Notes: a model not told the origin generated them from the sequence alone. 46,652 nucleotides of DNA from Candidatus Giovannonibacteria bacterium RIFCSPHIGHO2_02_FULL_45_13 (GCA_001778635.1 MFHO01000001.1:1-46652); one strand, 5' to 3'. Counted from the stretch's first letter, positions 7,373 to 29,275 are shown. A program made the numbers and translations.

Positions 7373-7423
7373 GTTTTTAAACTAAGTTAACTTCTAACTA
7401 GGTTTGAAATGGGGGTTTGAAAA

Positions 7424-8014: not shown

Positions 8015-8027
8015 GCGTTGTGTGCTC

Positions 8028-8789
8028 CTAGCTTAATTTATGCTGGGGGCTTTTATTTTTTCTGAATTTCAGCGCAAGAACGACATAGAGCGAATCAAAA
8101 ATGTCGCGGAGGGTGCTTTTGGAGGAGCCGCCTCTGCGTTCTAAAAATTGAATTGGGACCTCTTTGGTTTTCGCGTCCATGCGCAGCATTTCGTAAAGCC
8201 AATGGATTTTGTACGCGTAGTATTTTGAGAGCAGTTTGTTTGCATCAAACGGCAAATTTTCAGCGAATCCGGCAACGCGCGAAAGTTTAAAGCCGGAAGT
8301 TGCGTCGTTTATTGGCAGACCCAATATCAGCTTGGCGGTTAAACCGCCAAGCTGGCTTAAGAGCTTTCTATAAAGCGCCCATTCTGCGGGAATTGCGCCT
8401 CCGGCAACATATCGCGAGCCGATTACATAATCGTGCCCATTATCAAATTCTGCGATGAGTCTCGGAATATCGTTTGGATCATGCTGGCCATCGCCGTCAA
8501 ATTCAATTACGGCGTCCGCGCCGAGATTTTTTATTGCGTGATTAAATCCATAGGCATACGCGGCTCCTATGCCTCTTTTTTCTTTTTCTTTAATTAAAAA
8601 AATATTCGGATAGCGCGCGGATGCAGCAGCTACGGCCTCGGCCGTGCAATCGGGCGAATTTCCGTCAACAACTAAAATTCCCATTCGATGATTCGGGATT
8701 TTTTTAAATACTTTGGCGCAAAGAATATTTAAAAGCGCGCCTATGTTCGCCGCTTCGTTATAAGTAGGGATAATGACAAAAATTTTCAT
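8028..8789 (-). CDS. GT2 polyprenol-phosphate mannosyl/glycosyl transferase (Dpm1/Ppm1-like)
   Basis: MKIFVIIPTYNEAANI..., VVDGNSPDCT, GIGAAYAYGF, IEFDGDGQHDPNDIPRLI. It is soluble and short (253 aa), as in Ppm synthases. Confidence 0.8.
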   Translation of the reverse strand: MKIFVIIPTYNEAANIGALLNILCAKVFKKIPNHRMGILVVDGNSPDCTAEAVAAASARYPNIFLIKEKEKRGIGAAYAYGFNHAIKNLGADAVIEFDGDGQHDPNDIPRLIAEFDNGHDYVIGSRYVAGGAIPAEWALYRKLLSQLGGLTAKLILGLPINDATSGFKLSRVAGFAENLPFDANKLLSKYYAYKIHWLYEMLRMDAKTKEVPIQFLERRGGSSKSTLRDIFDSLYVVLALKFRKNKSPQHKLS

Positions 8790-10405
8790 TTTAATTTATA
8801 TATTTCTATCTCTGGGCCCATTTCTTTTATTTGAAACAGGACTAGGGGACTCTTTAAAAATTGGCTTTCAGCCAAAGATATCGCTGTTTCTCCAGAGCCG
8901 AATGTTCGCATGAGCTCGCTTTTTTCTAGCACATTTTTGAAATATTGGCTATTTTTGTAAGTTGGTTGGATAACCAAATATTCGTAATTGTTTTGTTGGA
9001 TGTAGCTTTCCACGTTTTCGTAGAAGTTTTGGTTGCCAGCGTCAAACAGATTCAGGGCGTGGAAATTCGGTTTTCCTAGTTCCGCGTCGGCCCGGTCAAC
9101 TTTTCTTAAAGACGAGGAATCAATTTTTTCTTGCTCTGATATCGCTTTCTCTGTTGTGGAAAAGCGCGTAAGCCGCGCAAGCACGATGATCTTGGTCCCC
9201 GGCGGTAAATTTTCTTCGGCCCACCTTCTTGCAAGCACGCGAGAATCGTTTTTTATCGCAAGCCAGTCAAAGCGCAGGACGAAGACAAGCGGAATTAAAA
9301 GAACAAGCAGAAATATTTTTTGCGGTACCCCGGAGGGCAATTTTTTTTGAATTTCATAAAATCCGTAGCCGGCCAAAATCGCGTAAAACGGCAAAAGCCC
9401 CATAAAAAATCGCGGCTCAAATCTGAAAACCAGATAAAAAATTGCGCTGTAGGAATAAATAAACGCGGCGAAAGCCCAAAAAACGCGGCGGTGATTTTTA
9501 AATGTGAAAACTAAGCCTAAAATCGTGAACGCAATCAATATAAATTCCGATGTTGCTATTGTCTTTGCAAAGTAGATTGGACTTGCAAGCGCGCCTAAGA
9601 TGGTTTTTGTGGTTTCCTCTGTTGTGTCTGCCCGGAAGCCGAGACTTCCGGGATAAAGCAAATAGGGCAGCGCGGCGAGCGCTGCAAACACAGAGAAGAG
9701 GCTGTAGAAAAACTTTTCTTTAAGCGCGCCCAAAATCGTTTTTTTGTCGTATATTGTGTGCCACAAGACAATAAGCGCTGCGAGCAGAATATTGATTATC
9801 GCAAATCCAACGCCTATTCCGGCGGATATGGCAGCGCAGAGATATCTTTTCTTTTCGGATAAATGTTCACGCGAAAGCCAAAAAAGCGTAATCGCTGCAA
9901 ACAAAAAAAACGATAGCCAATGGCGGCTTACCATTGAAAGCGCTGTGTGGATCAAACTTGTTGAGACAAAAAAAGCGGCTAACAGCGCGGGGCGGCGATC
10001 TCGGAAAATATTTTCCGTGATTTTATAAACTAAAAAAACCGAAAGAGTTGCCAAAACAACGTTAATTGTGCGCGCAATAATGTAAAACCACGAAAGGTCG
10101 GTTAAAAGAAATGAAGCAAAAAGAGCGCTTGGGCCGTCATATAATAACAATTTTATTGCAACAAGAGCCGCAAAAAACGGCAAATATAAATAAGAAAGAT
10201 AAGGCGGGTAGTAAAGAACAGTCTTGAAATCCGCCAGTTGCGAAGCCGGAATCAAAGTTTTTAACTGCAGCATTTTAAGAGCGGCCAAGGTAAACGGCGG
10301 TTCGTCATCAACAAGCCAAAGCGGGAGTCCGTAGCTTATGCCAACGATTCTTGCGAGAAAAGCAAGGGCTAATATAAAAATAAGTGATTTGTTGAGAGAC
10401 TTCAT
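8786..10405 (-). CDS. GT-C fold membrane glycosyltransferase (GT39/PMT_2/ArnT-like)
   Basis: 539 aa with more than 10 hydrophobic helices. The first-loop acidic motif is LWLVDDEPPF, and the C-terminal domain is soluble. A 4-nt overlap links it to the downstream Ppm-like gene. Confidence 0.7.
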   Translation of the reverse strand: MKSLNKSLIFILALAFLARIVGISYGLPLWLVDDEPPFTLAALKMLQLKTLIPASQLADFKTVLYYPPYLSYLYLPFFAALVAIKLLLYDGPSALFASFLLTDLSWFYIIARTINVVLATLSVFLVYKITENIFRDRRPALLAAFFVSTSLIHTALSMVSRHWLSFFLFAAITLFWLSREHLSEKKRYLCAAISAGIGVGFAIINILLAALIVLWHTIYDKKTILGALKEKFFYSLFSVFAALAALPYLLYPGSLGFRADTTEETTKTILGALASPIYFAKTIATSEFILIAFTILGLVFTFKNHRRVFWAFAAFIYSYSAIFYLVFRFEPRFFMGLLPFYAILAGYGFYEIQKKLPSGVPQKIFLLVLLIPLVFVLRFDWLAIKNDSRVLARRWAEENLPPGTKIIVLARLTRFSTTEKAISEQEKIDSSSLRKVDRADAELGKPNFHALNLFDAGNQNFYENVESYIQQNNYEYLVIQPTYKNSQYFKNVLEKSELMRTFGSGETAISLAESQFLKSPLVLFQIKEMGPEIEIYKLK

Positions 10406-10409
10406 GGGG

Positions 10410-10438
10410 TTTACTATACATAAAATTTTCGTTATAAT
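10410..10438 (+). promoter_or_regulatory. Promoter TTTACT-N17-TATAAT, 7 nt upstream of the ATG at 10446 (leaderless-type geometry)
   Basis: -35 at 10410-10415, -10 at 10433-10438, and no SD before the ATG. Confidence 0.5.
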
Positions 10439-10445
10439 CTAGAGC

Positions 10446-11150
10446 ATGAAACTTTCGATTATTATTCCCGCATACAACGAGGAAAATACGATTTTGGAAA
10501 TTCTCCGGCGGATTGAGGTTGTGGATTTGGGCGATATAAATAAAGAAATTATTATTATTGACGATGGTTCAACCGACGGAACGCGCGATATTTTGAGGGG
10601 CCCAGAACAATCCGACAAATATAAAATTTTCTACCAGAAAAAAAATTGTGGCAAGGGCGCGGCTCTGCGGCGCGGATTTAAAGAGGCGACCGGGGATTTT
10701 ATTGTTATTCAGGACGCGGATTTGGAATATGATCCGGCAGATTTGCCCATAATGTTGGCGCCGATTTTAAATGGTCGGGCAAGTATTGTATTTGGTTCGA
10801 GGGCTTTGCGCAAAAACAATGTGCCGTTTAGCGCGATTTATTTTTACGGAGGTATTCTGTTGTCAAAAATATTCAACATATTATTCGGAACAAAACTTAC
10901 CGATATAGCCACTTGCTATAAACTATTTCCGCGCAAATTTGTTCCGCAATTGATGCATTTAGCCACCAACAATTTTGTTTTTGATGTGGTAGAAATTACT
11001 TATAGCCTTTCCGGACTCGGGAATATTGTAGAAGTTCCTATATCTTACAAAGCTCGCAGTAAGAAGAGCGGCAAGAAAATGAGCGCTTTACACGGCATTA
11101 AATGTTTATTCACAATGTTAAGGATAAAATTATCATCACATGTTTTTTGA
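10446..11150 (+). CDS. GT2 family glycosyltransferase (Dpm1/polyprenyl-phosphate sugar synthase-like)
   Basis: LSIIIPAYNEENTI, IIIDDGSTDGT, KNCGKGAALRRGF, VIQDADLEYDP. Confidence 0.8.
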   Translation: MKLSIIIPAYNEENTILEILRRIEVVDLGDINKEIIIIDDGSTDGTRDILRGPEQSDKYKIFYQKKNCGKGAALRRGFKEATGDFIVIQDADLEYDPADLPIMLAPILNGRASIVFGSRALRKNNVPFSAIYFYGGILLSKIFNILFGTKLTDIATCYKLFPRKFVPQLMHLATNNFVFDVVEITYSLSGLGNIVEVPISYKARSKKSGKKMSALHGIKCLFTMLRIKLSSHVF

Positions 11151-11967
11151 TTATCAAATATACAGATTGTTCGTCGCTTGCGTAAAATCCATAAAACTAT
11201 TTTTTGCATCCAAACGATTCTTGCCGATGAATTTGTGGCTAGATTTTTGGCTTACGCATCGGAGAGAAACCATTGTTAATGTGAGCAATATAAAATTATT
11301 TATTCGCTCAGAGAATTTAAAATCAAAGCTAGCAGATTTATATATGGTTACAAATTGCGTGATAGATAGGCAATATGATTATGCGCCAGGAGTTTTAAGT
11401 CAATGCGGGGTGATTATTGACATCGGAGCGCACATTGGCTCATTTTCTGTTTATGCGGCACGGCAAACAGAAGATTCCTCAATTTTTAGTTTCGAGCCAT
11501 CGCCAGAAAACTATTTTCAGTTTAATAAGAATATTGCGTTAAATAGGCTTACAAATGTGCATCCATTCCAAAAAGCCATCGCCGCGCATAGCGGAAAGGC
11601 GCCTTTTTATTATGATCTGTTTAATAATGCCGCTCACAGCCTCATTAAAGAAACTAAAGATTTTATCAGTGTGGATTGTACAACACTGAAAGAGACATTT
11701 TTAGATTTTAAAATTGAACAATGTGATTTTTTAAAAATAGACTGCGAAGGAGCTGAATACGAAATATTATTTAATACTCCCGCCGAAATACTTAAACGAA
11801 TAAAGCGCATTGCGCTTGAGTATCATAATCCAATATTTTACGGCGTAAAAAACGTTGAACATACCTCGGAAAATTTAGCGCGCTTTTTAAACAAAATGGG
11901 ATTCGAAACAAAAATTTTACCAGAAAATCGCGCCCAAGGCATGTTGTTGGCCGTGCGCAGACAATAA
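11140..11967 (+). CDS. FkbM-family SAM-dependent methyltransferase
   Basis: IIDIGAHIGSFSVYAA, FSFEPSPENYFQFNKNI, FLKIDCEGAEYEIL are hallmark FkbM blocks. Confidence 0.8.
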   Translation: MFFDYQIYRLFVACVKSIKLFFASKRFLPMNLWLDFWLTHRRETIVNVSNIKLFIRSENLKSKLADLYMVTNCVIDRQYDYAPGVLSQCGVIIDIGAHIGSFSVYAARQTEDSSIFSFEPSPENYFQFNKNIALNRLTNVHPFQKAIAAHSGKAPFYYDLFNNAAHSLIKETKDFISVDCTTLKETFLDFKIEQCDFLKIDCEGAEYEILFNTPAEILKRIKRIALEYHNPIFYGVKNVEHTSENLARFLNKMGFETKILPENRAQGMLLAVRRQ

Positions 11968-11968
11968 A

Positions 11969-13246
11969 ATGAAATCAAAATTTTCAAAAACAGAGATTTT
12001 TCTATTTTGTTTGGCGTTCGGGGTTCGTTTTTTGTACGCGATTTTTGTGCAATTAAAATTCGGATCGCACGGCTTTTTGGCTTATTCGGATGCCCTTTCT
12101 TTTTATCTTCAGGGCGCGGAAAATTTAATCAACCACCATATTTTTAGTTTAAATACCAACCCACCGTATATGCCGGATACCTACCGCACGCCGCTTTATA
12201 CATTTTTTGTCGCGTTTTTTCTTTGGTTTAAATCGCCGTTTTTTTTAATAATTTTTGCACAGAACATTATGGCCGGATTTATCAGCGTCTTAATTTATCG
12301 CATCGGCTTATTGCTGAATTTTTCTTACGGCGTGAGCGTTTTCGCGTCGGTTTTAACAAGTCTTGAGCCGGCATCTATTTATTGGAACAACCTTTTAATG
12401 TCGGATTATCTTTTTGCTTTTTTGTTTGTTTTTGCTTGTTATTATTTTTTTCTTAAGCGCTATTCTGTTTTTGCTGTAATGCTTGGGTTTGCTACGCTTG
12501 CGCGGCCGATTAGTTTATATTTTATGCCGTTTTTTCTGCTGTTTATTTTATGGCGGGGGAGAGAAAAAATTCCGTGGGGGCAGATATTTGTAACGACAGT
12601 TTTATTTTTAACTGTGCTTTTTCCGTGGGCGCTGCGCAATAAAATCATATTTGACACTTGGGAGCTTAGCTCTGCTTCTTGGTACAATATTGACATGTTT
12701 TTAGTGCAGAGATTTGCTAGCAACCAGAACCTCGCTTTTTCTCGGCCGGAAATTCCAGACGGCTATCCAAATCCGCAGACTTTTTATTACGATTTTGCGA
12801 ATACGCCGTTTTATAAAGAACAGTTTTTTAAGGTTTTGAAAGCGCATCCATTTGCTTATATTAAATTTCATTTGTCTTTGGCGTGGCAGTCTATTTGGAA
12901 TAACCACTATCAATATTTGATAAACTATGTGATAAAACCCAAACTGCCGATTTTGCTAGATGGCATATACGGCGGTTTAATCGGGGCGTTTGTAATTACT
13001 AGCAACATGGTCAAAGTTGTTTTATTTGGATTATTTATATTGAGCTATTTTGATCAACGCAGCAGGCCGTGGTTTAGCCTTTTTGTTATGGTTATGGCAG
13101 TAAATACATTAACTCTCGGCAGTGCGGCATATCTTGGTGCTGATGTTAGTCGCTACAACATTCCTTTAGCGCCGTTTGTGTTTCTTTTTGCCGGAGTCGG
13201 CGCGAGGTTTATATATAATCATTTAAAATATGCTGTCTCGAGATAA
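11969..13246 (+). CDS. Polytopic membrane protein, GT-C-like glycosyltransferase
   Basis: 425 aa, about 11 hydrophobic segments, an early loop YSDALSFYLQGA, and proline/aromatic-rich loops. Family assignment is by architecture only. Confidence 0.5.
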   Translation: MKSKFSKTEIFLFCLAFGVRFLYAIFVQLKFGSHGFLAYSDALSFYLQGAENLINHHIFSLNTNPPYMPDTYRTPLYTFFVAFFLWFKSPFFLIIFAQNIMAGFISVLIYRIGLLLNFSYGVSVFASVLTSLEPASIYWNNLLMSDYLFAFLFVFACYYFFLKRYSVFAVMLGFATLARPISLYFMPFFLLFILWRGREKIPWGQIFVTTVLFLTVLFPWALRNKIIFDTWELSSASWYNIDMFLVQRFASNQNLAFSRPEIPDGYPNPQTFYYDFANTPFYKEQFFKVLKAHPFAYIKFHLSLAWQSIWNNHYQYLINYVIKPKLPILLDGIYGGLIGAFVITSNMVKVVLFGLFILSYFDQRSRPWFSLFVMVMAVNTLTLGSAAYLGADVSRYNIPLAPFVFLFAGVGARFIYNHLKYAVSR

Positions 13247-14819
13247 TTTTATTTTATTTTTTTTATTTCTAATTTTAATTGTCTTTGGGGCATGGCAGTT
13301 ACCCAAAAGCCCCGCTACTTGGTTTGACGAGGGGATTAATTTGGGTATCGCTAAAAGCTTGATTCAAGACGGCGTTTACAGCTTAAAAATCGGACCGGAC
13401 GAGTTTGTGGAGAGCCGCCAATTTTTGATTACGAGCAATTATCCGGTTTTGCTGCCGGTGGCCTTATCCATAAAACTGTTCGGATTTAATTTGGCCGCGG
13501 CGAGAGCGCCGATGGTCTTGTTTTTATTTTTGTTCGCGCTGGCCGCTTATTTTTTAGTAAAAAAACTTTACGGAAAAACTGCGGCTCTTATGAGCGTTGC
13601 GCTGATTGTGTCTTTTACGCCGTTTTACGGCAACGGTAAGGCGGTTTTGGGAGAAATTCCTGGGTTATTTTATTTTCTATGCGCGCTGATTCTGCTTATA
13701 CTGCCAGGCAAGAAACCAAGCCGGGAGTATTTTTGCGGGTTTGGAAGCGAGCAAGCATGGTTTTTTCGCAGAGCGAAAAATTGCGAAGCTTTCACCCCGA
13801 GTTCCGGCGCTGGCCGGAACGAGGAAAGCAAAAACACTGCTCGGCTTGTTTTTAATCTGCGCTTGCTTTTTGCCGGCTTTTTTGCCGGCCTTTCTGCGGC
13901 AACAAAGCCGTTTTTTCTTATCGTGCCGATCGCGATTTTTGCCGGCGAGATTTTTTCACTTGGAGGCTTAGCCTCCAAGTTAAAAAGAATCGCGGTTTTG
14001 GCGGCTGGCGCGGTTTTGCCGATGGCCATTTGGCTTTACACGATTTTGCCGAGCTTTTCTTTCGGCGGGTTTTTATCGGCCATTACGTATTATTCCAATT
14101 CTTACGCTTCAACGAATTTCGGTAATTTAATCTGGGCGAATTTTCTGCGATTTTTCACCGAATCAACCCCGATCCATTTTGCTGTTTTATTTCTGGTGTC
14201 CGCCGCGTTTTTGGTATGGAAAAGAAAATCAAAACCGCGCTCCTCAACACTCGGTGTTGAATCCCCAAAAACACCGAGTGTTTTCCCGCGCGGTTTTGAT
14301 TTTATTGAAAACACATTGGCCATTTTTGTTTTGCTAACTATGGCTTTTTACCTCAAAACCCCCGGTTGGTACCGCTATTTTTTCCCCGCGCACATGATTT
14401 TATTTTTGATTTTCCCGGCTGCTTTGATTTATTTACTCAACAAAAAAATCGCAATCTCTGTGGTTGTTTTGTTATTTTTATTCCAGCTTGGATACACCAT
14501 TAATCAAAGAAACACAAGCATATATTATTCCGATGAAGCGGAAATGTTTTCAAAATATGTTATGGAAACAACAGCGCCGCAGGATAAAAATTTAATAATT
14601 AACGGACCAAGCGCCGCGTTTTTGATTGAGAATAGGCAGGTTTATCAGTATTTACAAATAAATCCCGTATTGTCTTTCGGGCGCGGCGATGCCGCGGAAT
14701 ATTCTTATATTGCTGTACAAGGCGCTTGGCCCGAGAGCTTGGATCAAAATCTCAAATCTGATTATACGGTTCATAAACAAGTCGGCCATTATGCTTTATA
14801 CAGAAAAATAAATTTTTAG
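13230..14819 (+). CDS. GT-C fold membrane glycosyltransferase (ArnT/PMT_2-like) carrying two in-frame palindromic inserts
   Basis: The N-terminal loop motif is ATWFDEGINLGIA (the DE motif of ArnT/PMT). The protein is polytopic with a C-terminal soluble domain. See the repeats at 13717-13848 and 14225-14303. Confidence 0.6.
   Translation: MLSRDNFILFFLFLILIVFGAWQLPKSPATWFDEGINLGIAKSLIQDGVYSLKIGPDEFVESRQFLITSNYPVLLPVALSIKLFGFNLAAARAPMVLFLFLFALAAYFLVKKLYGKTAALMSVALIVSFTPFYGNGKAVLGEIPGLFYFLCALILLILPGKKPSREYFCGFGSEQAWFFRRAKNCEAFTPSSGAGRNEESKNTARLVFNLRLLFAGFFAGLSAATKPFFLIVPIAIFAGEIFSLGGLASKLKRIAVLAAGAVLPMAIWLYTILPSFSFGGFLSAITYYSNSYASTNFGNLIWANFLRFFTESTPIHFAVLFLVSAAFLVWKRKSKPRSSTLGVESPKTPSVFPRGFDFIENTLAIFVLLTMAFYLKTPGWYRYFFPAHMILFLIFPAALIYLLNKKIAISVVVLLFLFQLGYTINQRNTSIYYSDEAEMFSKYVMETTAPQDKNLIINGPSAAFLIENRQVYQYLQINPVLSFGRGDAAEYSYIAVQGAWPESLDQNLKSDYTVHKQVGHYALYRKINF
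13717..13848. repeat. 132-bp palindromic (MITE/REP-like) element embedded in-frame in a CDS
   Basis: The termini CAAGCCGGGAGTATTTTTGC (13717-13736) and GCAAAAACACTGCTCGGCTTG (13828-13848) are imperfect inverted repeats. The inner perfect hairpin is GTTCCGGC-GCTG-GCCGGAAC (13801-13820). Length is 132 bp, which equals 44 codons. Confidence 0.6.
14225..14303. repeat. 79-bp nested perfect palindrome embedded in a CDS
   Basis: The outer 16-bp arms are AAAATCAAAACCGCGC (14225-14240) and GCGCGGTTTTGATTTT (14288-14303). The inner 13-bp arms are AACACTCGGTGTT (14246-14258) and AACACCGAGTGTT (14270-14282). Confidence 0.8.
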
Positions 14820-15536
14820 AATATCTTTTAACGTTTGAAACGAATCGCGGAGCACACTAATGTTGGACTTTCCTATGGTTTCCAAAACAACTGGAACCTC
14901 TTTTATTTGGAGCCCGGCGCGTTTTGCTTTGACCAAAAGTTCCAAATCAAAAGCAAAGCGGTCTATTTTTAGACTTGGCAGAAATTCCTCGGCGGCTTTT
15001 TTGGTAAGTCCTTTAAGCCCTGCCTGCGTGTCAGAAAATTCGAGATGAAGTAGATGGCGGACTAAAAACCCAAAACCCCAGTGGGTCAGATGTCTCACAA
15101 AGCCGATGTCGGAAGTTGGGTGTTGGGTGTTAGATGTTAGACCCGCCTGCCGGACGGGCAGGTTTCTATTGGCGATTACTAAATCCGTCCCGGATTTTAA
15201 AAGTTCAATCATTTTTTTAAAGTAACTTGTGCCGTACGGCAAATCTGCGTCGGTAAAAATAATAATGTTGCTTGAGGCGGCAGAGATGCCCTCGCGGACG
15301 CTCGCGCCCTTGCCGAGATTCATTTTGCGATCAATGAATTTAATCGCAGGATTATTTTGCGATTTCGCGCTTATGATTTCGGCTGTTTTATCCCAACCGC
15401 CGTCATTTATTACAATAATTTCTGCATTGAAATTTTCGGCGCCCAAAAAGTTCGTGAGCCTGTCTATGCTCTTGCCTATCACCGCCTTGTCGTTATAAAC
15501 TGGGATAATGATAGAAATTTCCGGAGCTAAACTCAT
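14796..15536 (-). CDS. GT2 family glycosyltransferase (polyprenyl-phosphate sugar synthase-like, soluble)
   Basis: ISIIIPVYNDKAV, IIVINDGGWDKT, NLGKGASVREG, IFTDADLPY, FSDTQAGLKG (the DxQ.G.K block). Confidence 0.75.
   Translation of the reverse strand: MSLAPEISIIIPVYNDKAVIGKSIDRLTNFLGAENFNAEIIVINDGGWDKTAEIISAKSQNNPAIKFIDRKMNLGKGASVREGISAASSNIIIFTDADLPYGTSYFKKMIELLKSGTDLVIANRNLPVRQAGLTSNTQHPTSDIGFVRHLTHWGFGFLVRHLLHLEFSDTQAGLKGLTKKAAEEFLPSLKIDRFAFDLELLVKAKRAGLQIKEVPVVLETIGKSNISVLRDSFQTLKDILKIYFSV
15115..15162. repeat. Four tandem 7-nt units followed by a GC hairpin, inside the GT2 CDS
   Basis: GTTGGGT GTTGGGT GTTAGAT GTTAGAC (15115-15142), then CCTGCC-GGACG-GGCAGG (15146-15162). Confidence 0.7.
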
Positions 15537-16929: not shown

Positions 16930-16935
16930 TTTTTT

Positions 16936-17874: not shown

Positions 17875-17878
17875 CAAC

Positions 17879-21713: not shown

Positions 21714-22735
21714 TTACCGGCGGCTCCGGATTTTTGGGCATAAATTTGGTCAGGTTTTTGCTTGCAAAAAATCAGCGTGTAAGAGTTTTGGATATTGCGG
21801 ATTTTGATTATCCCGAAAAAAATAAAATTGAATTTAATTTAGGCGACGTCCGCGATAATCAGGCGATAGATAAAACAATGAGAGGCGTTGACGTTGTTGT
21901 GCATGCTGCTGCAGCCCTCCCGCTTTACTCGCGAGAAGACATTTTTTCAACGGAAGTTGAGGGCACAAAAAATGTTTTAGAAAGCGCAAAAAAGCACAAT
22001 GTTGACAGATTTATTCACATCTCAAGCACTGCGGTTTACGGCATTCCTGATCACCACCCGATTTATGAGAATGATAAACTTATTGGAGTGGGCCCCTACG
22101 GCGAAGCCAAAATCTTGGCAGAAGAGGAGTGTTTGAAAAAAAGAAAAGAAGGAATGGTTGTGTCCATTCTGCGCCCGAAATCTTTTATCGGCCCTGAGCG
22201 GTTGGGAGTTTTCGCGCTTTTTTACGATTGGGCAAGCGCGGGGCATAATTTTCCAATGATCGGCAGCGGCAAAAACCGCTATCAGCTTTTGGATGTTGAG
22301 GATTTATGCGATGCGATTTGGCTTTCGGCGACTTTGCCGAAAGAAAAAACCAATGACGCTTTCAACATTGGCGCCAAAGAATTTATGACGATGCGCGAGG
22401 ACTATCGGGCGGTTTTGGATCGGGCCGGATATGGAAAAAAAATAATCGGCTTTCCGGCGGCGCCGATGATTTTGGCTTTAAGATTTTTAGAGATTTTGCG
22501 CCTTTCCCCGCTTTACAAATGGGTTTACGAAACCGCAGGCAAAGACTCTTTTGTGTCAATAGAAAAAGCGGAGCGAGTTTTGGGGTATCATCCAAAATAT
22601 TCCAACAAACAGGCACTCATTCGCAACTACGAATGGTACTTGGCCAATATGGATAAATTTAAAGATCAATCCGGAATTTCCCACCGAGTGCCGTGGAAAC
22701 AGGGGATACTAAAAATCGCTAAGTATTTTTTTTGA
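21692..22735 (+). CDS. NAD-dependent epimerase/dehydratase (extended SDR)
   Basis: ITGGSGFLGINLVRFLL Rossmann motif and the catalytic YGEAK. Confidence 0.8.
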   Translation: MENKQYLITGGSGFLGINLVRFLLAKNQRVRVLDIADFDYPEKNKIEFNLGDVRDNQAIDKTMRGVDVVVHAAAALPLYSREDIFSTEVEGTKNVLESAKKHNVDRFIHISSTAVYGIPDHHPIYENDKLIGVGPYGEAKILAEEECLKKRKEGMVVSILRPKSFIGPERLGVFALFYDWASAGHNFPMIGSGKNRYQLLDVEDLCDAIWLSATLPKEKTNDAFNIGAKEFMTMREDYRAVLDRAGYGKKIIGFPAAPMILALRFLEILRLSPLYKWVYETAGKDSFVSIEKAERVLGYHPKYSNKQALIRNYEWYLANMDKFKDQSGISHRVPWKQGILKIAKYFF

Positions 22736-22739
22736 GTTT

Positions 22740-23390
22740 ATGAGCCACGCTGAATATTGTGGCCAATTTATAAAACCCGGCGGCAAGGTTTTGGATGTCG
22801 GCTCCGGCAGAGGCGATTTTTTGCGCGGGATGGCGAGTCTCGGGTTCGATGCGCGTGGAGTTGAGTCAAGCCCGGAGCGCATTTTTTCCGCCACAGGCGG
22901 AAAGGTTGTCCGGGCAAGCGCGGAAGATTTGCCGTTCCAAGATAATTATTTTGATTTTGTAAATTGCGCCGAGGTCAGCGAGCACGCTGACAATCCTGCA
23001 AAAATGCTTGCGGAAATTTTTCGTGTTTTGAAGTCGGGCGGGAAATGCTACATAAGTTTTCACAATCGTTGCGGCGTTTACGATTACCACTATCATTTAT
23101 ATTTTATTAATTGGATGCCAAGAGCGTGGACCGAGCCAATTTTAAAGTTTTTGGGAAAACAAAAAAAAGATGGTCAGGCGGGCCGTCAAAAATTAATTTC
23201 CATGCACTACTATACTTGCGGCAGAATTTTAAGGATGCTTCGCGATGCTGGTTTTTCTGCCGCAGATATTCGAGCGGAAAGAATAAAAAAAATCTCAGGC
23301 GTTTTTCATATTTTATTTTTATTTTTTTATTTCTGTTTGCTCCGCCCGTTTTATTTCAATACTTTCCACTTTCTGCTTGCTAAACCTTAA
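22740..23390 (+). CDS. Class I SAM-dependent methyltransferase with a hydrophobic C-terminal tail
   Basis: VLDVGSGRGDF, CAEVSEHADNP, VLKSGGKCYISF. The C-terminus is ILFLFFYFCLLRPFYF. Confidence 0.75.
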   Translation: MSHAEYCGQFIKPGGKVLDVGSGRGDFLRGMASLGFDARGVESSPERIFSATGGKVVRASAEDLPFQDNYFDFVNCAEVSEHADNPAKMLAEIFRVLKSGGKCYISFHNRCGVYDYHYHLYFINWMPRAWTEPILKFLGKQKKDGQAGRQKLISMHYYTCGRILRMLRDAGFSAADIRAERIKKISGVFHILFLFFYFCLLRPFYFNTFHFLLAKP

Positions 23391-23415
23391 TCCGGCCTGA
23401 TAAGTTATAAGAGAT

Positions 23416-24417
23416 ATGACTTTTCTTGTTACAGGCGGATGCGGTTTTATGGGATCAAATTTCATCCATTTTTTGTTTAAGAACCTTAATGGAGTCAAGG
23501 TTATAAATTTGGATTTGCTTACGTACGCCGGCATTAAAGAAAACCTGAAGAGTATTCCAGCAAAGCGCCACAGATTTGTAAAAGGCGACATTGCCGATAC
23601 AAATTTGGCGAGGCGATTAATGAAGCAAGCGGACTATGTGGTTAATTTTGCGGCGGAAACCCACGTGGATAGATCCATTCATGCAGGTTCGCATCAGTTT
23701 ATTCACACAAATATTTTTGGCGTACATTCACTTTTGGAAGCGCTGCGAATGTCTCCCAACATTAAAAAAATGATTCATATTTCAACGGACGAGGTGTGGG
23801 GTGATTTGGATTTAAAATCAAAAGAAAAATTTACCGAAGAATCGCCGCTTAGGCCGAATTCTCCGTATTCTGCTTCTAAGGCCGCAGGCGATCTGCTGGT
23901 CAGATCATATGTTAAAACATATGGATTGCCTGTAATCATTTCTCGTTCGGTAAATAATTTTGGGCCGAGGCAGCATCCGGAAAAATTGATACCGTTTTTT
24001 GCAATACAAACTGTGCAAAACAGACCACTGCCCCTTTACGGAGACGGCAAAAATGTCCGAGATTGGCTTTACGCTGACGATCACTCGGCAGCGGTTGCGG
24101 CGCTCTTAAAAAAGGGCAAGATCGGCGAAATCTACGCTGTTTCGCGGGGCCGGGAATATTCTAATTTGGAGATTGCTAGAAAAATATTAAAAACGCTGAA
24201 CAAGCCGGAAAGTTTGATAACTTTTGTGCAAGACCGGCCGGGGCACGATCGCCGTTATTCAGTTGACTCCTCAAAATTGAGGCGGCTTGGCTGGCGGCCT
24301 CGCCATTCACTGGATCAGCAATTAAAAAGCACTTTAATGTGGTATGCTCAAAACAACGGCTGGCTTAAGAGCGTTTTAAAGAAAAGTAGCAACATAAATC
24401 AGCATATAAAAACATGA
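23416..24417 (+). CDS. rfbB: dTDP-glucose 4,6-dehydratase
   Basis: VTGGCGFMGSNF, DLLTYAG, FAAETHVDRS, STDEVWG, YSASKAAGDLL, RPGHDRRYS. Confidence 0.9.
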   Translation: MTFLVTGGCGFMGSNFIHFLFKNLNGVKVINLDLLTYAGIKENLKSIPAKRHRFVKGDIADTNLARRLMKQADYVVNFAAETHVDRSIHAGSHQFIHTNIFGVHSLLEALRMSPNIKKMIHISTDEVWGDLDLKSKEKFTEESPLRPNSPYSASKAAGDLLVRSYVKTYGLPVIISRSVNNFGPRQHPEKLIPFFAIQTVQNRPLPLYGDGKNVRDWLYADDHSAAVAALLKKGKIGEIYAVSRGREYSNLEIARKILKTLNKPESLITFVQDRPGHDRRYSVDSSKLRRLGWRPRHSLDQQLKSTLMWYAQNNGWLKSVLKKSSNINQHIKT

Positions 24418-25157
24418 AAGCCGTAATTTTAGCTGGTGGCGACGGTACCAGGCTTCACCCACTTACGTTAGTTACGAATAAGCATCTTTTACCTGTTTAT
24501 AATAAGCCGGTTATTTATTACGCGATAGAAAAATTGGCGGCTGCCGGAGTTGACAAAATAATGGTAGTTACCTCGCCTCGGCAAGTTGAACATTTTGTGA
24601 ATTTGCTAGGTTCCGGGCAGAATTTTAAGTCCAAAAATACCGGCAAGCAGACCCAGATAGTTTACGGAATACAAAACGAGCCTAGGGGCATCGCGGAGGG
24701 GCTTTGGATTGCAAAAGATTACATTAGCAACGATAATTGCGTGCTTTATTTGGGTGACAATATTGTGGAAGACGACATCGGCGAGCATGTTGCTAATTTT
24801 AAAGACGGCGCGACGATTTTTTTAAAAAAAGTGGAGGACCCAGTTCGATTCGGAGTAGCATCCGTGGATAAAATGGGTAATGTTTTGGAAATCGAAGAAA
24901 AGCCGAAAAACCCAAAATCAAATCTGGCCGTGGTCGGAGTTTATATTTATGACAACTCCGTTTTTAATAAAATGACCGGCCAGCCCAAATCAGCGCGCGG
25001 CGAATATGAAATTACATATGTAAACAACAAGTATATTGAAGAAGGCACATTAAAATCTGTTTTGCTTAAAAAAGATTGGTTTGACGTGGGAACATCTGAA
25101 AGTTTGTTTGCGGCCGGAAATTTTATGAGAAACAAAATTTCACGCCTTGAATCATGA
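24414..25157 (+). CDS. rfbA: Glucose-1-phosphate thymidylyltransferase-like sugar nucleotidyltransferase (short form)
   Basis: [36 protein letters not shown]. ATGA overlap with rfbB. Nucleotide specificity cannot be read from the sequence. Confidence 0.78.
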   Translation: [247 protein letters not shown]

Positions 25158-25756
25158 GTGATTTAATATACAGATCGCCGCTTTTGTATAGATTAGCGAT
25201 ATTTTTTTTATATAGAGGCGATTATTCAGAGAGATATGAAATATTGGACCGATTTATTAAAGAAAGGTCATCTGTGGTTGAACTATGCTGCGGTCCGGGC
25301 GACTTCTATCGCGGATTTTTAAAGAAGAAAAATGTAAACTATTTGGGGGTTGATAATAGCGCCGACTTTATTAAACGCTGTAAAAAGAAAGGAATCAATG
25401 TAATTTGGGGCGACGTATCGCAGTTCAATTTTATCAAAAGTGATTATTATATAATAATATCTTCGCTTTATCAGTTTCACCCCGATATAAGAGAGTTAAT
25501 AAATAAAATGTTACAGTACGCCAAATGCGTGTTAATATCAGAACCGATTAAGAATATTTCAAATTCAAAATATAAAATTATTTCTAAAATTGCCGCATAT
25601 CTCACAAATAAAAAAAATTATGAAAACAATTTCCATTTTACTGAAAAAAGTTTGGACACAATGATGCTGGCTGGTTTTAAAAACAAAATTGTTTACGTTC
25701 AAACAACAAAAAACGGCAGGGAAAAAATATACGTGTTAAAAAATGAATCAAACTGA
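25154..25756 (+). CDS. Probable class I SAM-dependent methyltransferase
   Basis: VVELCCGPGDF (motif I-like), YLGVDNS, IIISSLYQF. ATGA overlap with rfbA. Confidence 0.6.
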   Translation: MSDLIYRSPLLYRLAIFFLYRGDYSERYEILDRFIKERSSVVELCCGPGDFYRGFLKKKNVNYLGVDNSADFIKRCKKKGINVIWGDVSQFNFIKSDYYIIISSLYQFHPDIRELINKMLQYAKCVLISEPIKNISNSKYKIISKIAAYLTNKKNYENNFHFTEKSLDTMMLAGFKNKIVYVQTTKNGREKIYVLKNESN

Positions 25757-26456
25757 CTTATCTTTAGTCGTCGCTTGTTACAATGAGGAGCCTCACTTGG
25801 CGGAAAGCATCGCCGAAATTGAGGCGATAATGGAGCAAACTTTGTATTCTTATGAATTGATTTTTATTGATGATTGTAGCCAAGACAAAACAATAGATGT
25901 GATAAAAAAAATTTGCGCAGAGAGAAACAATTGCCGCTATGTTTTTCATAAAAAAAACATCGGGCGCGGAGGAACGGTGCGCGAAGGATTCCTTATGGCG
26001 CGGGCACCCTTCGCCGGTTTTTTGGACATTGATTTAGAGGTGCACGCGCGCTATATTCCAAGCATGATTTTGTGGCTGGAAAAAGGTTATGATATGGTTG
26101 CTATAGAAAGAACCGAAAAATTGAGCTCGAACCCTTATAAGTTATTGCGTTTAATTGTAAGTGGGGTTGGCGCAAGAGTGGTTCGCTATTTTCTGCGCAC
26201 CAACTTCCCAGATTCGGCATCGGGATTTAAGTTTTTTAATATGAACACGATGAAAGATGTGATTGCAAATACCAAAGATGATGGTTGGTTTTGGGATACG
26301 GAAATAATTTTAAGAGCAGAAAAAGCAAATAAAAAACTGAAATCCATACAAGGAGTTTTTGAGCATCGATTGGATAAAAAAAGCACCATGCGCCTTATAC
26401 CCGATACCATCGCGTACATCAAGACAATTTTAAGGTTTAAGAAAAACAAGCTATGA
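25743..26456 (+). CDS. GT2 family glycosyltransferase (ArnC/Dpm1-like)
   Basis: LSLVVACYNEEPHL, LIFIDDCSQDKT, NIGRGGTVREGF, FLDIDLEV. Confidence 0.8.
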   Translation: MNQTDLSLVVACYNEEPHLAESIAEIEAIMEQTLYSYELIFIDDCSQDKTIDVIKKICAERNNCRYVFHKKNIGRGGTVREGFLMARAPFAGFLDIDLEVHARYIPSMILWLEKGYDMVAIERTEKLSSNPYKLLRLIVSGVGARVVRYFLRTNFPDSASGFKFFNMNTMKDVIANTKDDGWFWDTEIILRAEKANKKLKSIQGVFEHRLDKKSTMRLIPDTIAYIKTILRFKKNKL

Positions 26457-27613
26457 GAAAAGATTTTTTAACGTTCGGCAATCCGCTGATAGAGCAGCCG
26501 GAAATCGATGAAGTCGTTGATTCTCTAAAAAGCGGCTGGCTCGGGACTGGGCCGAAGGTAAAAAAGTTTGAAGAGTTGTTCGGCAAATATAAGGGCGTTA
26601 AATATGCCGTGGCTCTTAATTCTTGCACGGCCGCTTTACATTTGGCCTTGCTCGCCATTGGCATAAAACCAAAAGACGAAGTGATTGTGCCGGCAATGAC
26701 TTTTGTCGCAACCGCGAATGTCGTTATTCATGCCGGCGGAACTCCAGTTCTGGCTGATTGCGAGAAGGGCACCATGAACATTGATCCGGCTGATGTGGAA
26801 AAAAAGATTACCAAAAAAACCAAAGCCGTCATCCCAGTGCATATGGCCGGGCGCTCCTGCGATATGGATGCGGTAATGGCGCTGGCTAAAAAATATAATT
26901 TAAAGGTGGTGGAAGACGCCGCTCATGCCGTTGAAACGGAATATCGCGGCAAAAAGGCGGGGACCTTCGGGGATATCGGGTGTTTTAGCTTTTATGCCAC
27001 AAAAAATTTGGTTACCGGAGAGGGCGGCATGGCCATTACAAACAACGGGGAATACGCCGATAAAATGAGGATTTTGTCTTTGCACGGAATTAGCGCGGAT
27101 GCGTGGCAACGATTCGGAAGCGACGGATATAAGCACTATCAGGCGATATACCCGGGCTATAAGTACAACATGATGGATTTGCAGGCGGCGCTGGGCATTC
27201 ATCAGCTAAAGAAAATAGATAAACATTGGGCGAGGCGTCAGGAAATATGGAACAAGTACAACGAAGCGTTTAAAAATTTGCTGGTGTTTTTGCCGGCGCA
27301 GATTGAGCCAAACACGAAGCACGCATATCATCTTTATACTCTGCTTTTAAACATAGACAATTTAAAAATAACCCGCGACCAATTTTTAGAAAAAATGACG
27401 AAGAATAACATTGGGGTTGGGGTGCATTTTATTGCTGTGCATATGCATCAGTATTATCGCGACAGATTCGGATATAAAAAAGGAGATTTTCTCAGCGCAG
27501 AATGGATTTCGGAGAGAACAGTTTCTTTGCCGCTTTCTCCGAAATTAACGGACGACGACGTTAACGACGTTATAACTGCGGTAACGGACGTTTTGAACCA
27601 GCAACGAAAATGA
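26453..27613 (+). CDS. DegT/DnrJ/EryC1/StrS-family PLP-dependent sugar aminotransferase
   Basis: SGWLGTGPKVKKFEE, AVALNSCTAALHLAL, DEVIVPAMTFVATAN, the PLP-lysine region FSFYATKNLVTGEGG. Confidence 0.9.
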   Translation: MRKDFLTFGNPLIEQPEIDEVVDSLKSGWLGTGPKVKKFEELFGKYKGVKYAVALNSCTAALHLALLAIGIKPKDEVIVPAMTFVATANVVIHAGGTPVLADCEKGTMNIDPADVEKKITKKTKAVIPVHMAGRSCDMDAVMALAKKYNLKVVEDAAHAVETEYRGKKAGTFGDIGCFSFYATKNLVTGEGGMAITNNGEYADKMRILSLHGISADAWQRFGSDGYKHYQAIYPGYKYNMMDLQAALGIHQLKKIDKHWARRQEIWNKYNEAFKNLLVFLPAQIEPNTKHAYHLYTLLLNIDNLKITRDQFLEKMTKNNIGVGVHFIAVHMHQYYRDRFGYKKGDFLSAEWISERTVSLPLSPKLTDDDVNDVITAVTDVLNQQRK

Positions 27614-29265
27614 CCAAAAGATTTTTTAAAGAACACTATTTAATCGCCGTTTCGGGGCTGCTGCTGACGCTGTTAATTGAGGCGCCGCTTTTGGCGTTTC
27701 CTTTTGTTTCAAAAAATTATCAAGACATCAATATCCCGCATTTCGGCACGGACTCCCATTTTTATCTAAGCCGCGCGCAAGAGGCATTGGAGCGGAATAA
27801 TCTCGGAAATGCCTTTTTGCGCGAGGGCAAAGACAACCAAGACGCATATTTTGTTTACAACGAACGGGCACTGGCGCTGCTGCCGAGAGTTTTTGGGCTG
27901 GCAGACGCGGTTAGCGCCCCGACATTTTATGCAATTTATAATTTCGCCGGCGTATTTGCCTTAATTTTGCTTATTTATTTTTTTACGCTGCAGCTTGCGC
28001 CGGGCAAGCTGCTGGCGGCCGTTGCCGCGATTTTTGTCGTTGGGGGATATCACATTGCATATAAAGATTTTTTTTATATGGATTTTAACCTTTACGGCAG
28101 GCCGATTTTTCCCTATTTAAGTTCTTTGGCGCTTTTTCTTTACTTATTTTTTTTGGTCAAGAGCGTCAATACGGACAGGGTGGCTTACAAAATATCGGCA
28201 GGGGTTTTATTCGGCGCTCTGTTTTACGTTATTTTTTATGGCTGGACTTTTGTGCTGGCCCTAAACGGCGCGCTGTTTTTGTTTTATTTATTTAAAAAAG
28301 ATTTCGCGCGCCTCAAAATGATTGCGCAGATAAGCGCGATAGGGGTTTCCCTTGGATTATATAATTTTGTGAAAATGCTGCGCTTCGCCGCCTCCGATAT
28401 CGGATCCCAATCTTCGTATTTTAATTGGGCTTATCATACGCATAAACCTATTTTTAGCAAAGTGACGGCGGCCGCGCTCGCGCTGTTTTTATTTTTTTAC
28501 TATAAAAAGAAGCGAGATCCGAATCTTATTTTAATTCTCGGCTTAATATCGGCGTTTTGGATTGTTTTAAATCAGCAGATTATCACCGGCAGAGTGGAGC
28601 AGCCCGCGCATTACCATTGGTGGTTTATCGTCCCGCTCGCAATAATTTCGGCCCTCTATATGTTATGGGTTTTGCTGGAAAAATACGAGTGGCGAAGATT
28701 TTTATTTGGATTTATTCTTTTTGCCGTTTTTGCCCACAGCGCTTTGGGGCAATACCGTTCTTTTTGGACAACCTTGCCGGGGAAAGAATATGAACAGCTA
28801 TACCGGCCGATAATAGCGGAATTGCAAAAAGATCCCAACTCCGGCGTGATTTTGGCGGCGGATGACTATCTGGCGTATTTATTTACCATTTACACACGCC
28901 ACGATTTATTTTGGCACACTGGCGCGACAGCGACGGTGATGCCTATGAGCCGTTTCTACGACACGCTTTACGTTTACGCTTATCTTAGCAAAAATCCTCT
29001 CGCCGACCCAAGTTACAAGCAGATTTATCAACACATCAAAGGTTTTGAATCCGGTTTGGATTATTATGATTATATTAGCAAGGCTACTGGCGTCGCGGAG
29101 ATCATAAAACCGCAAATTGACGCGAATAATCTTTTAAAAAAGTACGGCGTTAACTATATTGTTTGGGACAAAAACAGGAATCCGGAGTGGGACTTGTCTT
29201 TTATAAAAAACCTCCGCCCGGTAACTTCTTACAACAATATTTATTTATTTCAAATAATGTATTAA
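27610..29265 (+). CDS. Large polytopic membrane protein, function unknown (candidate GT-C/YfhO-type transferase)
   Basis: 551 aa, about 11 hydrophobic helices, then a ~170-aa soluble C-terminal domain. An early loop is HFGTDSHFYLSRAQEA. ATGA overlap with the aminotransferase. No family recognised with confidence. Confidence 0.4.
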   Translation: MTKRFFKEHYLIAVSGLLLTLLIEAPLLAFPFVSKNYQDINIPHFGTDSHFYLSRAQEALERNNLGNAFLREGKDNQDAYFVYNERALALLPRVFGLADAVSAPTFYAIYNFAGVFALILLIYFFTLQLAPGKLLAAVAAIFVVGGYHIAYKDFFYMDFNLYGRPIFPYLSSLALFLYLFFLVKSVNTDRVAYKISAGVLFGALFYVIFYGWTFVLALNGALFLFYLFKKDFARLKMIAQISAIGVSLGLYNFVKMLRFAASDIGSQSSYFNWAYHTHKPIFSKVTAAALALFLFFYYKKKRDPNLILILGLISAFWIVLNQQIITGRVEQPAHYHWWFIVPLAIISALYMLWVLLEKYEWRRFLFGFILFAVFAHSALGQYRSFWTTLPGKEYEQLYRPIIAELQKDPNSGVILAADDYLAYLFTIYTRHDLFWHTGATATVMPMSRFYDTLYVYAYLSKNPLADPSYKQIYQHIKGFESGLDYYDYISKATGVAEIIKPQIDANNLLKKYGVNYIVWDKNRNPEWDLSFIKNLRPVTSYNNIYLFQIMY

Positions 29266-29275
29266 AAATTAAAAA

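Follow-up and report, generated by a model that had tools for sequence, protein, structure and literature searches.

The DNA studied here, GCA_001778635.1 MFHO01000001.1:1-46652, comes from Candidatus Giovannonibacteria bacterium RIFCSPHIGHO2_02_FULL_45_13, and the whole stretch of 46,652 nt is called the window. Between positions 8028 and 29265 the window carries a battery of genes for family 2 glycosyltransferases (GT2a to GT2e) interleaved with genes for large polytopic membrane proteins (GT-C A to GT-C E; Table 1). An earlier reading of the sequence, the original prediction, took these genes for a set of extracytoplasmic glycosylation systems. The genes from 8028 to 46125 are contiguous, overlapping or abutting, and because the gaps between them are no longer than 40 bp there is no room for a further gene. 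Within this segment, 15508–32170 is a tightly packed array of 17 genes on one strand. The Pfam scan covered all 45 non-nested open reading frames (ORFs) of at least 100 aa in the window. Transmembrane segments were counted with a hydropathy scan, and orientation was taken from a crude positive-inside count.

Five window genes match PF00535, with 84–117 bits against a cut-off of 23.3. The original prediction spoke of six GT2 genes of the Dpm1/GtrB/ArnC type while itself listing five; the class is upheld and the count is corrected to five. GT2d aligns over its full length with PDB entries for ArnC (E 1.4e-40), GtrB (6e-24) and an archaeal Dol-P-Man synthase (3e-17). The four short proteins GT2a, b, c and e (234–253 aa) share only 20–29% mutual identity, and they were compared as a profile, A3, made from their alignment (238 positions). 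The top PDB match of A3 is the Dol-P-Man synthase (DPMS) of P. furiosus (E 5e-35, positions 1–231 of 238), with ArnC (positions 2–227) and then GtrB following. Other GT2 structures, including chondroitin synthase, PglI and TagF, cover only the first ~110 residues of the profile. The similarity to DPMS and ArnC thus spans the catalytic core and the juxtamembrane/interface region that binds the lipid phosphate, and the DxD column is invariant in the alignment. The best NCBIfam matches of the GT2 proteins are AglJ, PpgS, PgfS, ArnC and a Dol-P-hexose transferase, all of which glycosylate polyprenyl phosphate. GT2d has two C-terminal transmembrane segments and the other four proteins have none, a feature that is not universal in the class: GtrB, ArnC and archaeal DPMS have the anchor, and human DPM1 and mycobacterial PpgS lack it. 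By sequence, then, all five GT2 proteins are assigned to the DPM1/ArnC/GtrB class, whose members make polyprenyl-phosphate sugars.

GT-C enzymes have about 7–13 transmembrane helices (PMC11127046), and the five polytopic proteins, which do lie between the GT2 genes as originally placed, have 7–11 transmembrane segments each. The three loop motifs named in the original prediction were all found: DDEPPF at residue 33 of GT-C A and WFDEG at residue 31 of GT-C C, each straight after the first transmembrane segment, and HPPG in GT-C D, as VHPPGY at residues 181–186. In the 33 homologues of GT-C D, H178, H182, P183, P184 and G185 are invariant. Conserved acids occur in the first outside loop, namely DDE 33–35 in A, DE 33–34 in C, D72 (94% acidic) together with E150 in D, and D48 (100% acidic) in E; in GT-C B, D41 in the loop after the first transmembrane segment is invariant (100%). 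An outside location for the acidic loops, as had been proposed, is predicted for C, D and E, and the positive-inside count is ambiguous for A and B. For GT-C C the count is 23 vs 12, with the loop and the C-terminal domain predicted outside. GT-C D has an additional N-terminal transmembrane segment and is predicted N-out, which places the D72 and E150/HPPG loops outside.

Assignment of the membrane proteins by hidden Markov models, which the original prediction had proposed as a check, gave direct PMT or PMT_2 matches for A and C, and matches through homologues for B and D. One GT-C B homologue is named by NCBI as a GT39-family protein of Ca. Giovannonibacteria. GT-C E gave no Pfam, NCBIfam or PDB-sequence match, and neither did any of its 36 homologues. 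Single-sequence PDB searches returned nothing for GT-C A or GT-C C, and profile searches of the PDB returned nothing credible for the D and E families. Structure models and Foldseek searches were made for GT-C D and GT-C E. The AlphaFold2 (AF2) model of D (pLDDT 91.7, more than 10 long helices) matches STT3, AftA, ArnT, EmbA/B and ALG9/12 with probability 1.00. The model of E (pLDDT 91.1, more than 10 long helices) matches STT3, DPY19, PglB, AglB, AftA and ArnT with E-values of 5e-8 to 3e-5 and TM-scores of 0.48–0.59. The credible matches of both models are GT-C enzymes without exception; transporters among the matches listed have probabilities of at most 0.23 and TM-scores of about 0.1. All five polytopic proteins are assigned the GT-C fold, A and C by Pfam, B and D via their homologues, and E by the structure model alone. 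They are five distinct families and not recent duplicates, because profile–profile comparison of the B, D and E families gave no significant relation (probabilities 0.3–2.6%). Two other identities were considered and rejected. The proteins are not Wzy polymerases, O-antigen ligases or transporters, the families that would have spoken against the original prediction: there is no Wzy_C match, and no WaaL, RodA/SEDS or Wzx/MOP structure is among the Foldseek matches listed. Membership of D or E in the STT3 family was rejected on the lack of a WWDxG motif in any of the five proteins and of an STT3 Pfam match.

Table 1. Glycosylation genes of the window, grouped by proposed role.
Feature	Position	Strand	Properties and matches
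GT2a	8028-8789	-	253 aa, no transmembrane segment; PF00535 88 bits; best NCBIfam matches AglJ, PpgS, ArnC
GT2b	10446-11150	+	234 aa, no transmembrane segment; PF00535 117 bits; AglJ 110 bits, full length
GT2c	14796-15536	-	246 aa (gene callers: 228 aa), no transmembrane segment; PF00535 89.7 bits; PgfS, AglJ and PpgS matches
GT2d, ArnC/GtrB-type	16936-17874	+	312 aa; 2 C-terminal transmembrane helices; NF007986 169 bits
GT2e, short DPM1-like	25743-26456	+	237 aa, no transmembrane segment; PF00535 84 bits
GT-C A	8786-10405	-	539 aa, at least 9 transmembrane segments; Pfam PMT PF02366 26.5 bits (cut-off 22.7); PMT_2 22.3 bits
GT-C B	11969-13246	+	425 aa; no Pfam match of its own; PF13231 (PMT_2) in 9 of 46 homologues
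GT-C C	13230-14819	+	529 aa; PMT_2 31.6 bits (cut-off 26.1)
GT-C D	15508-16929 (alternative start 15535)	+	473 aa; no Pfam match of its own; PMT_2 in 9 of 33 homologues, best E 5.8e-14
GT-C E	27610-29265	+	551 aa; AF2 model and Foldseek; C-terminal outside domain; D48 in long loop after first transmembrane segment
UbiA-family polyprenyl-phosphate 5-phosphoribosyltransferase (PPPRS/DPPRS type)	20399-21322	+	NF008978 207.5 bits (cut-off 207); NF008977 232.1 bits (cut-off 234)
Small HAD-IIIA phosphatase, candidate phosphoribose phosphatase	21312-21713	+	133 aa; TIGR01662 41.6 bits, under the 44.6 cut-off; DxDxT motif I (DVDGT) at residue 23
SDR epimerase/dehydratase-family protein, candidate lipid-linked pentose epimerase	21692-22735	+	PF01370 143 bits; GxxGxxG and YxxxK motifs
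FkbM-family methyltransferase	11140-11967	+	PF05050 67.5 bits
AsnB-type glutamine amidotransferase	17879-19720	+	PF00733 332 bits; TIGR03108 539 bits
Class I SAM methyltransferase	19708-20472	+	PF08241 89.5 bits
Class I methyltransferase	22740-23390	+	PF08241 73 bits
RmlB (dTDP-glucose 4,6-dehydratase) and RmlA-like thymidylyltransferase	23416-25157	+	TIGR01181 423.8 bits (cut-off 365); rmlA models 229 bits, under cut-off
MetW-like methyltransferase	25154-25756	+	PF07021 46.8 bits; kept beside E-type GT-C in locus L008
DegT/ArnB/PseC-type sugar aminotransferase	26453-27613	+	PF01041 448 bits; ArnB model 390 bits and PseC model 376 bits, both under cut-offs
GT4	29276-30481	+	Pfam/NCBIfam; MshA/PimA-type similarity
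Nucleotidyltransferase	30510-31223	+	Pfam/NCBIfam
Dehydratase	31220-32170	+	Pfam/NCBIfam
FkbM methyltransferase	32167-33018	-	Pfam/NCBIfam
Capsule_synth (PF05159), candidate nonulosonic-acid transferase	33040-34602	-	weak similarity to T. forsythia BFO_1060 family

The coupling of GT2 and GT-C genes extends beyond the window. In the window itself the start of GT2a overlaps the stop of the upstream GT-C A gene by 4 bp. An exhaustive profile search with the E family gave 2237 clusters (50% identity), of which 1536 have E ≤1e-10, and 68 loci encoding E-family proteins were fetched from species-representative genomes. Nearly all are labelled Patescibacteria (the Candidate Phyla Radiation, CPR), with a few inconsistent third-party annotation (TPA) labels. 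A DPM1-like GT2 gene ends no more than 3.5 kb upstream of the E-family gene in 38 of the 53 loci that have at least 4 kb of upstream sequence, on the same strand in 36 and abutting it in 9. Six E-family members are natural N-terminal GT2::GT-C fusions. The fused GT2 domain of P0055 has GT2e as its best window match, but those of P0080, P0162, P0218 and P0281 are nearest to GT2c, so the idea that the fused domains are orthologous to a single window GT2 was rejected. GT-Cs are also fused to methyltransferases, N-terminally to a class I domain in P0188 (E family) and C-terminally in P0142, a B-family homologue, which hints by sequence that methylation may be coupled to B- and E-type transferases. 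Also recurring in relatives are the order GT2, B, PMT_2 and the association of GT-C D with the ArnC-like GT2 and AsnB genes. We take E to be an unclassified GT-C family, large and almost confined to Patescibacteria, whose genes usually follow a GT2 gene and in some cases are fused to a GT2.

GT2e is probably the partner of GT-C E. The RmlB, RmlA-like and DegT genes flank GT2e, ahead of GT-C E, and the DegT, GT2e and GT-C E genes mirror the logic of arnB, arnC and arnT. By this analogy the group would place a 4-amino-4,6-dideoxyhexose on polyprenyl phosphate, possibly methylated by the MetW-like enzyme. Another genome (L008) keeps the order GT2, DegT, methyltransferase, MetW, E. In CP066687.1 (locus L007), which at 651,549 bp is the closest complete relative, positions 5443–7200 of the locus encode a 585-aa fusion of a dTDP-glucose-dehydratase-type SDR with a GT2, followed by an FdtA isomerase, methyltransferases, DegT and then the E homologue. 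That organism probably puts a 3-amino, not a 4-amino, dideoxyhexose on the lipid.

A further donor module, missed in the original inventory, lies at 20399–22735. The UbiA-family protein encoded there has an NDxxDxxxD motif (NDVWDAPYD, residues 79–87) and is followed by the HAD phosphatase and the SDR epimerase, an order that is kept in relatives. The residues of this motif have been mutated in the Citrobacter youngae enzyme and are required (PMC11127046). The pentofuranose system of C. youngae O1/O2 consists of ORF15 (PRP-PPPRS), ORF13 (SDR epimerase), ORF14 (MATE flippase) and ORF12 (a GT-C of family GT136) (PMC11127046). By sequence and by analogy with that published system, the UbiA/HAD/SDR module would be a sixth lipid-donor pathway, and the total for the island is therefore six lipid-linked donors and five GT-Cs.

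The C. youngae system includes a flippase, and the window has no recognisable one. A GtrA gene directly follows the SDR epimerase gene in CP066687.1 (L007 4159–4752) and in loci L011, L030 and L041. Contig L002 is 97.8% identical to window 7012–22742 and diverges exactly past the stop codon of the epimerase gene into a GtrA gene (L002 15740–15898), whose product is 81% identical to the CP066687.1 protein. At this site the window has only a 4-bp junction (22735–22740) to the next methyltransferase gene, and tblastn of the relatives' GtrA proteins against the window gave no match. Because L002 has GtrA where the window has the junction, the comparison of these sequences indicates that in the window's strain the flippase gene of this module was lost or had never been acquired; either all the modules share another flippase encoded elsewhere, or the pentose module is impaired. 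The "three-component" systems of the original prediction accordingly lack their third component, by Pfam and tblastn, among the window ORFs. The sole remaining window membrane protein that could be a flippase is a 339-aa polytopic protein at 45106–46125 (minus strand), apparently built of two ~5-helix bundles parted by a charged linker. It gave no family, PDB or neighbour match and is not assignable to any flippase family.

The machinery of a conventional polysaccharide pathway was sought as priming transferase, Wzx, Wzy, Wzz and ABC exporter (PF02397, PF00953, PF01943, PF13440, PF04932, PF02706 and PF00005). As originally claimed, none is present in the 45 window ORFs. The 8 kb by which contig L003 continues the window to the right also lack these families, and the neighbourhood of the E-type gene in the nearest Giovannonibacteria loci (L007, L011, L012, L019, L030 and L041) showed no priming, Wzx, Wzy or ABC genes.

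Taken together, these observations suggest, with a probability of about 0.7, that the region forms the central part of an island for cell-surface glycosylation in a Patescibacterium (Ca. Giovannonibacteria-like) that uses single sugars linked to polyprenyl monophosphate. At the cytoplasmic face the five DPM1/ArnC/GtrB-class GT2 enzymes would each load one nucleotide-activated sugar onto polyprenyl phosphate. Some of these sugars would be tailored beforehand, by RmlA/RmlB and DegT to a 4-amino-4,6-dideoxyhexose, by the AsnB amidotransferase, and by several methyltransferases. The UbiA phosphoribosyltransferase, HAD phosphatase and SDR epimerase would convert phosphoribosyl pyrophosphate (PRPP) to a polyprenyl-phosphate pentofuranose. 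The lipid-linked sugars would then be flipped to the outer face, by a flippase not encoded in the window, and the five GT-Cs, of families unrelated in sequence, would use them outside the membrane on a surface acceptor. We infer the donor sugars and each GT2–GT-C pairing. The acceptor would most likely be a surface glycoprotein or a wall glycan to which the nonulosonic acid from the neighbouring genes is also attached (see below).

Several results weigh against this reading. No GT2 reaches an equivalog NCBIfam cut-off, which would fix the donor sugar (best scores 45–169 bits vs 325–529). GT2e by itself aligns to ArnC, its best PDB match, only over the N-terminal half (residues 6–127), and chondroitin synthase gives a similar E-value. 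The best Foldseek E-value of GT-C D is 8.6e-4, with TM-scores of only 0.43–0.47, and for GT-C E the fold is called from a predicted structure whose TM-scores reach only 0.5–0.6. The top fold matches include oligosaccharyltransferases, so that transfer of a whole oligosaccharide is compatible with the fold. No GtrA, SMR, EamA, MATE/MOP or LPG_synthase_TM Pfam match occurs in the window ORFs, and no acceptor gene was identified.

Other genes of the island concern sugar tailoring and cytoplasmic glycan synthesis. The AsnB-type protein probably amidates a sugar acid, and its pairing with the ArnC-like GT2 gene is found again in relatives, as is the order E, GT4, FkbM, Capsule_synth, NeuB. Divergent from the Capsule_synth gene, and extending to 39373, are genes for NeuB, NeuC, an SDR protein, a methyltransferase and a CMP-transferase (NeuA); the sequences suggest that window 33040–39373 is a CMP-nonulosonic-acid pathway with a candidate transferase. 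A second set lies beyond the right end of the window (L003 13762–21008), with a NeuC-like epimerase, NUDIX/acetyltransferase, NeuB, hexapeptide acetyltransferase, DegT and dehydratase; counting it, the glycan island exceeds 55 kb. At 42535–43686 there is a 383-aa protein with no significant Pfam family, which ends in GGIHCSTL and has a faint arginine-deiminase match; it may have the amidinotransferase fold and produce an acetamidino sugar. The GT4, the Capsule_synth-like transferase and CMP-nonulosonic-acid synthesis depend on export and on an acceptor that is either a protein or linked to lipid, and so the locus is not confined to extracytoplasmic steps. The earlier view of extracytoplasmic decoration in place of a conventional repeat-unit pathway thus holds for the missing machinery and fails in this respect. 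The carrier and export route for these cytoplasmic steps were not found in the window.

It is possible, although we think it rather unlikely, that the region only adds side branches and supplies sugars to a conventional pathway encoded outside the window, with a glycan primed on undecaprenyl pyrophosphate (Und-PP), exported by Wzx or an ABC transporter, and ligated or polymerised. The cytoplasmic GT4 and Capsule_synth-like transferase would need such a carrier. Further, 81 otherwise unassigned membrane proteins near GT-C homologues in the 68 related loci were surveyed. Near the E-family GT-Cs, 11 of them are MOP/Wzx-like, 6 are of the Wzy_C+TPR type and 6 are ABC exporters, along with 7 SMR, 5 EamA, 4 LPG_synthase_TM, 4 further GtrA, 7 MBOAT and 11 additional PMT_2 proteins. 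This census shows that Wzx-like, Wzy_C and ABC genes travel with related islands in some lineages. A complete pathway immediately outside the window, which the original prediction named as a point that would tell against it, is not seen in the 8 kb at the right end, while the relatives make a conventional core elsewhere in the genome possible. Against the side-branch explanation are the lack of such genes in the window and those 8 kb and their lack around the E-type gene in the six closest loci. The Wzy_C proteins could also be ligases or O-oligosaccharyltransferases. The MOP proteins, for their part, may themselves be three-component flippases, since a MOP protein can serve as the flippase of such a system (PMC11127046).

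A second alternative, which we consider doubtful, is that the GT-Cs build a polymer instead of decorating one, assembling a lipoglycan or wall heteroglycan in sequence outside the membrane on a membrane-anchored primer made by the GT4. Mycobacterial lipomannan, lipoarabinomannan and arabinan are built in this way by GT-Cs that depend on polyprenyl-phosphomannose (PPM) and decaprenylphosphoryl-arabinose (DPA). The donor set of the window fits, with a DPPRS-type UbiA protein and several DPM1-like synthases, PpgS-like matches included, as do the AftA and Emb proteins among the fold matches of D and E, the MshA/PimA-type similarity of the neighbouring GT4, and the absence of Wzy, Wzx and ABC genes from the window. 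The 17-gene same-strand array also suggests a single product. On the other hand, there is about one GT-C per donor (six donors, five GT-Cs), whereas in mycobacteria two donors serve many GT-Cs; Emb/Aft-style carbohydrate-binding domains were not detected; and there is no evidence of a polymer. The same array (15508–32170) and the near 1:1 ratio of donors to GT-Cs make strict independence of the modules doubtful. The claim of at least four independent systems was therefore not borne out, as six donors and five GT-Cs could act in sequence on one glycan.

Archaeal-style assembly is less probable still. A DPM1-like GT2 would prime as Haloferax AglJ does, the GT4, nonulosonic-acid transferase and methyltransferases would extend the glycan in the cytoplasm, and after flipping an STT3-like GT-C (E or D) would transfer it whole to protein. 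Such a scheme would explain both the absence of a WbaP/WecA-type primer and the presence, within one island, of Leloir glycosyltransferases and CMP-nonulosonic-acid genes. For GT2a and GT2b the best NCBIfam match is AglJ, and STT3, PglB and AglB are top fold matches of D and E. Yet AglJ scores far under the model cut-off, none of the C-terminal domains has WWDxG, there is no Pfam STT3 match, and enzymes with monosaccharide donors (ArnT, AftA, DPY19, ALG9) score about equally. Independent decorations, stepwise mycobacterial-style assembly of one glycan and archaeal-style priming on polyprenyl phosphate are not separable here. Similarly improbable, in our judgement, is a stronger form of the single-sugar reading, in which synthase/GT-C pairs pass the lipid-linked sugar over the membrane without a dedicated flippase and the CPR glycan coat is made wholly from polyprenyl-monophosphate donors, after the archaeal or mycobacterial manner, with no primer, Wzx, Wzy or ABC exporter; it is allowed by the recurrent fusion of the E family to DPM1-like synthases and by the lack of GtrA in the window in comparison with a near-identical strain. 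Finally, it is very improbable that the short GT2 proteins are ordinary Leloir transferases acting on a lipid-linked oligosaccharide, their DPM1 likeness being generic GT-A similarity, for although they reach no equivalog cut-off and GT2e alone aligns only to half of ArnC, the match of the A3 profile to Dol-P-Man synthase and ArnC extends across the C-terminal region that binds the lipid phosphate, where other GT2 structures drop out, and this GT2 type is recurrently fused N-terminally to GT-Cs and consistently lies upstream of GT-C genes.

The proposed use of single lipid-linked sugars has parallels in known systems. In GtrA/GtrB/GtrC and in ArnC/ArnE-F/ArnT a GT2 of the same class makes a polyprenyl-phosphate sugar that a GT-C uses outside. 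Unlike those systems, four of the five window GT2 proteins lack C-terminal transmembrane helices, the window encodes neither GtrA nor an ArnE/F flippase, sequence comparison identifies none of the GT-Cs as ArnT or GtrC, and five GT-Cs are stacked in one locus. Moreover, Patescibacteria are reported to be monoderm; if so, lipid A and O antigen, the targets of Arn and Gtr, are excluded as acceptors here. Gram-positive and archaeal pairs (S. mutans PgfS/PgfM1/PgfM2, streptococcal GacI/GacL, CsbB/YfhO/GtcA of B. subtilis and Listeria, Haloferax AglD/AglS and AglJ/AglB) and the TfpW pilin arabinosylation of P. aeruginosa apply the two-enzyme logic to proteins or wall polymers of envelopes of the monoderm type. 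PgfS and AglJ are among the best NCBIfam matches, but all scores are far under cut-offs, YfhO and STT3 were not matched, and the window has far more modules in a single locus. The mycobacterial and corynebacterial envelope (Ppm1, PpgS/Rv3779, DPPRS Rv3806c, PimE, Mpt, Emb, Aft) is alike in that GT2- and UbiA-type polyprenyl-monophosphate donors feed multiple GT-Cs without Wzy polymerisation. It differs in phylum, in its much larger genome, in a donor:GT-C ratio that is ~1:1 in the window, in its DprE1/E2 pair, for which the window has a single SDR protein, and in its Emb-like carbohydrate-binding domains, which were not detected here. The C. youngae pentofuranose system shares the UbiA PPPRS with NDxxDxxxD beside GT-C genes, and in the window a candidate HAD phosphatase and a candidate SDR epimerase correspond to its phosphatase and epimerase (PMC11127046). 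In the window, by comparison, the phosphatase is a separate 133-aa protein and not a fused domain, and of the MATE flippase of C. youngae and the GtrA of the relatives neither is present. In sum, the GT2 plus GT-C logic is known; what sets this locus apart is the packing of six donor pathways, together with five GT-C families unrelated to one another, into 21 kb of a very small genome, the anchorless synthases, the lack of a flippase in this strain, and a large GT-C family that has no current family model and is fused to a synthase in some genomes.

As to the setting, the window begins with the end of rpoB, followed by rpoC (1208 aa), a HicA/HicB-like pair, an rve transposase gene and a small HTH protein. 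The 78-aa HicA-like and 110-aa HicB-like ORFs lie at 4790–6482 (minus strand) beside the rve-family transposase, between rpoC and the island. In other assemblies contigs break near window position 7012, suggesting that the island is bordered by a repeated mobile element. Small DUF218/YdcF-like proteins are encoded on either side of this element (4339–4767 and 7424–8014), the first with a weak Pfam match (E 0.034) and the second judged by eye only. The G+C content falls from 0.47–0.48 over rpoBC (window 1–8000) to 0.375–0.44 in the first part of the island (10001–12000), a drop often seen at variable surface-glycan loci. A promoter and terminator scan gave counts close to shuffle expectation, with nearly all sites intragenic; one 10/12 promoter-like site lies at 10410–10438, in a 40-bp divergent gap. 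Contigs from groundwater metagenomes (JGI 3300002502 and the 113.6-kb ENA ERZ27254752 k141_1058917) encode identical proteins, and the nearest named homologues are from metagenome-assembled genomes of Candidatus Giovannonibacteria and other Parcubacteria/Patescibacteria. Because the gene order of the island is found again in other Giovannonibacteria and Parcubacteria genomes, the cluster is not due to chance. Given the size of CP066687.1, the genome of the window's organism is probably ~0.65 Mb.

Patescibacteria are abundant, mostly uncultured and largely host-dependent, and to our knowledge essentially nothing is known of their surface chemistry; no publication on GT-C systems or DPM1-like batteries of CPR bacteria turned up in our literature searches. 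The island would mean that more than 40 kb of a genome of probably ~0.65 Mb is devoted to surface glycosylation, and that the GT2 plus GT-C logic is extended to an array of many donors and many transferases. The presence or absence of GtrA at strain level is variation of the kind expected of surfaces that interact with phages or hosts. The E family of GT-Cs, which is large and unclassified and includes natural fusions to a synthase, is suited to structural and biochemical study, and the enzyme–substrate pairings, from RmlA/RmlB/DegT through GT2e to GT-C E and from PRPP through UbiA/HAD/SDR, are open to test.

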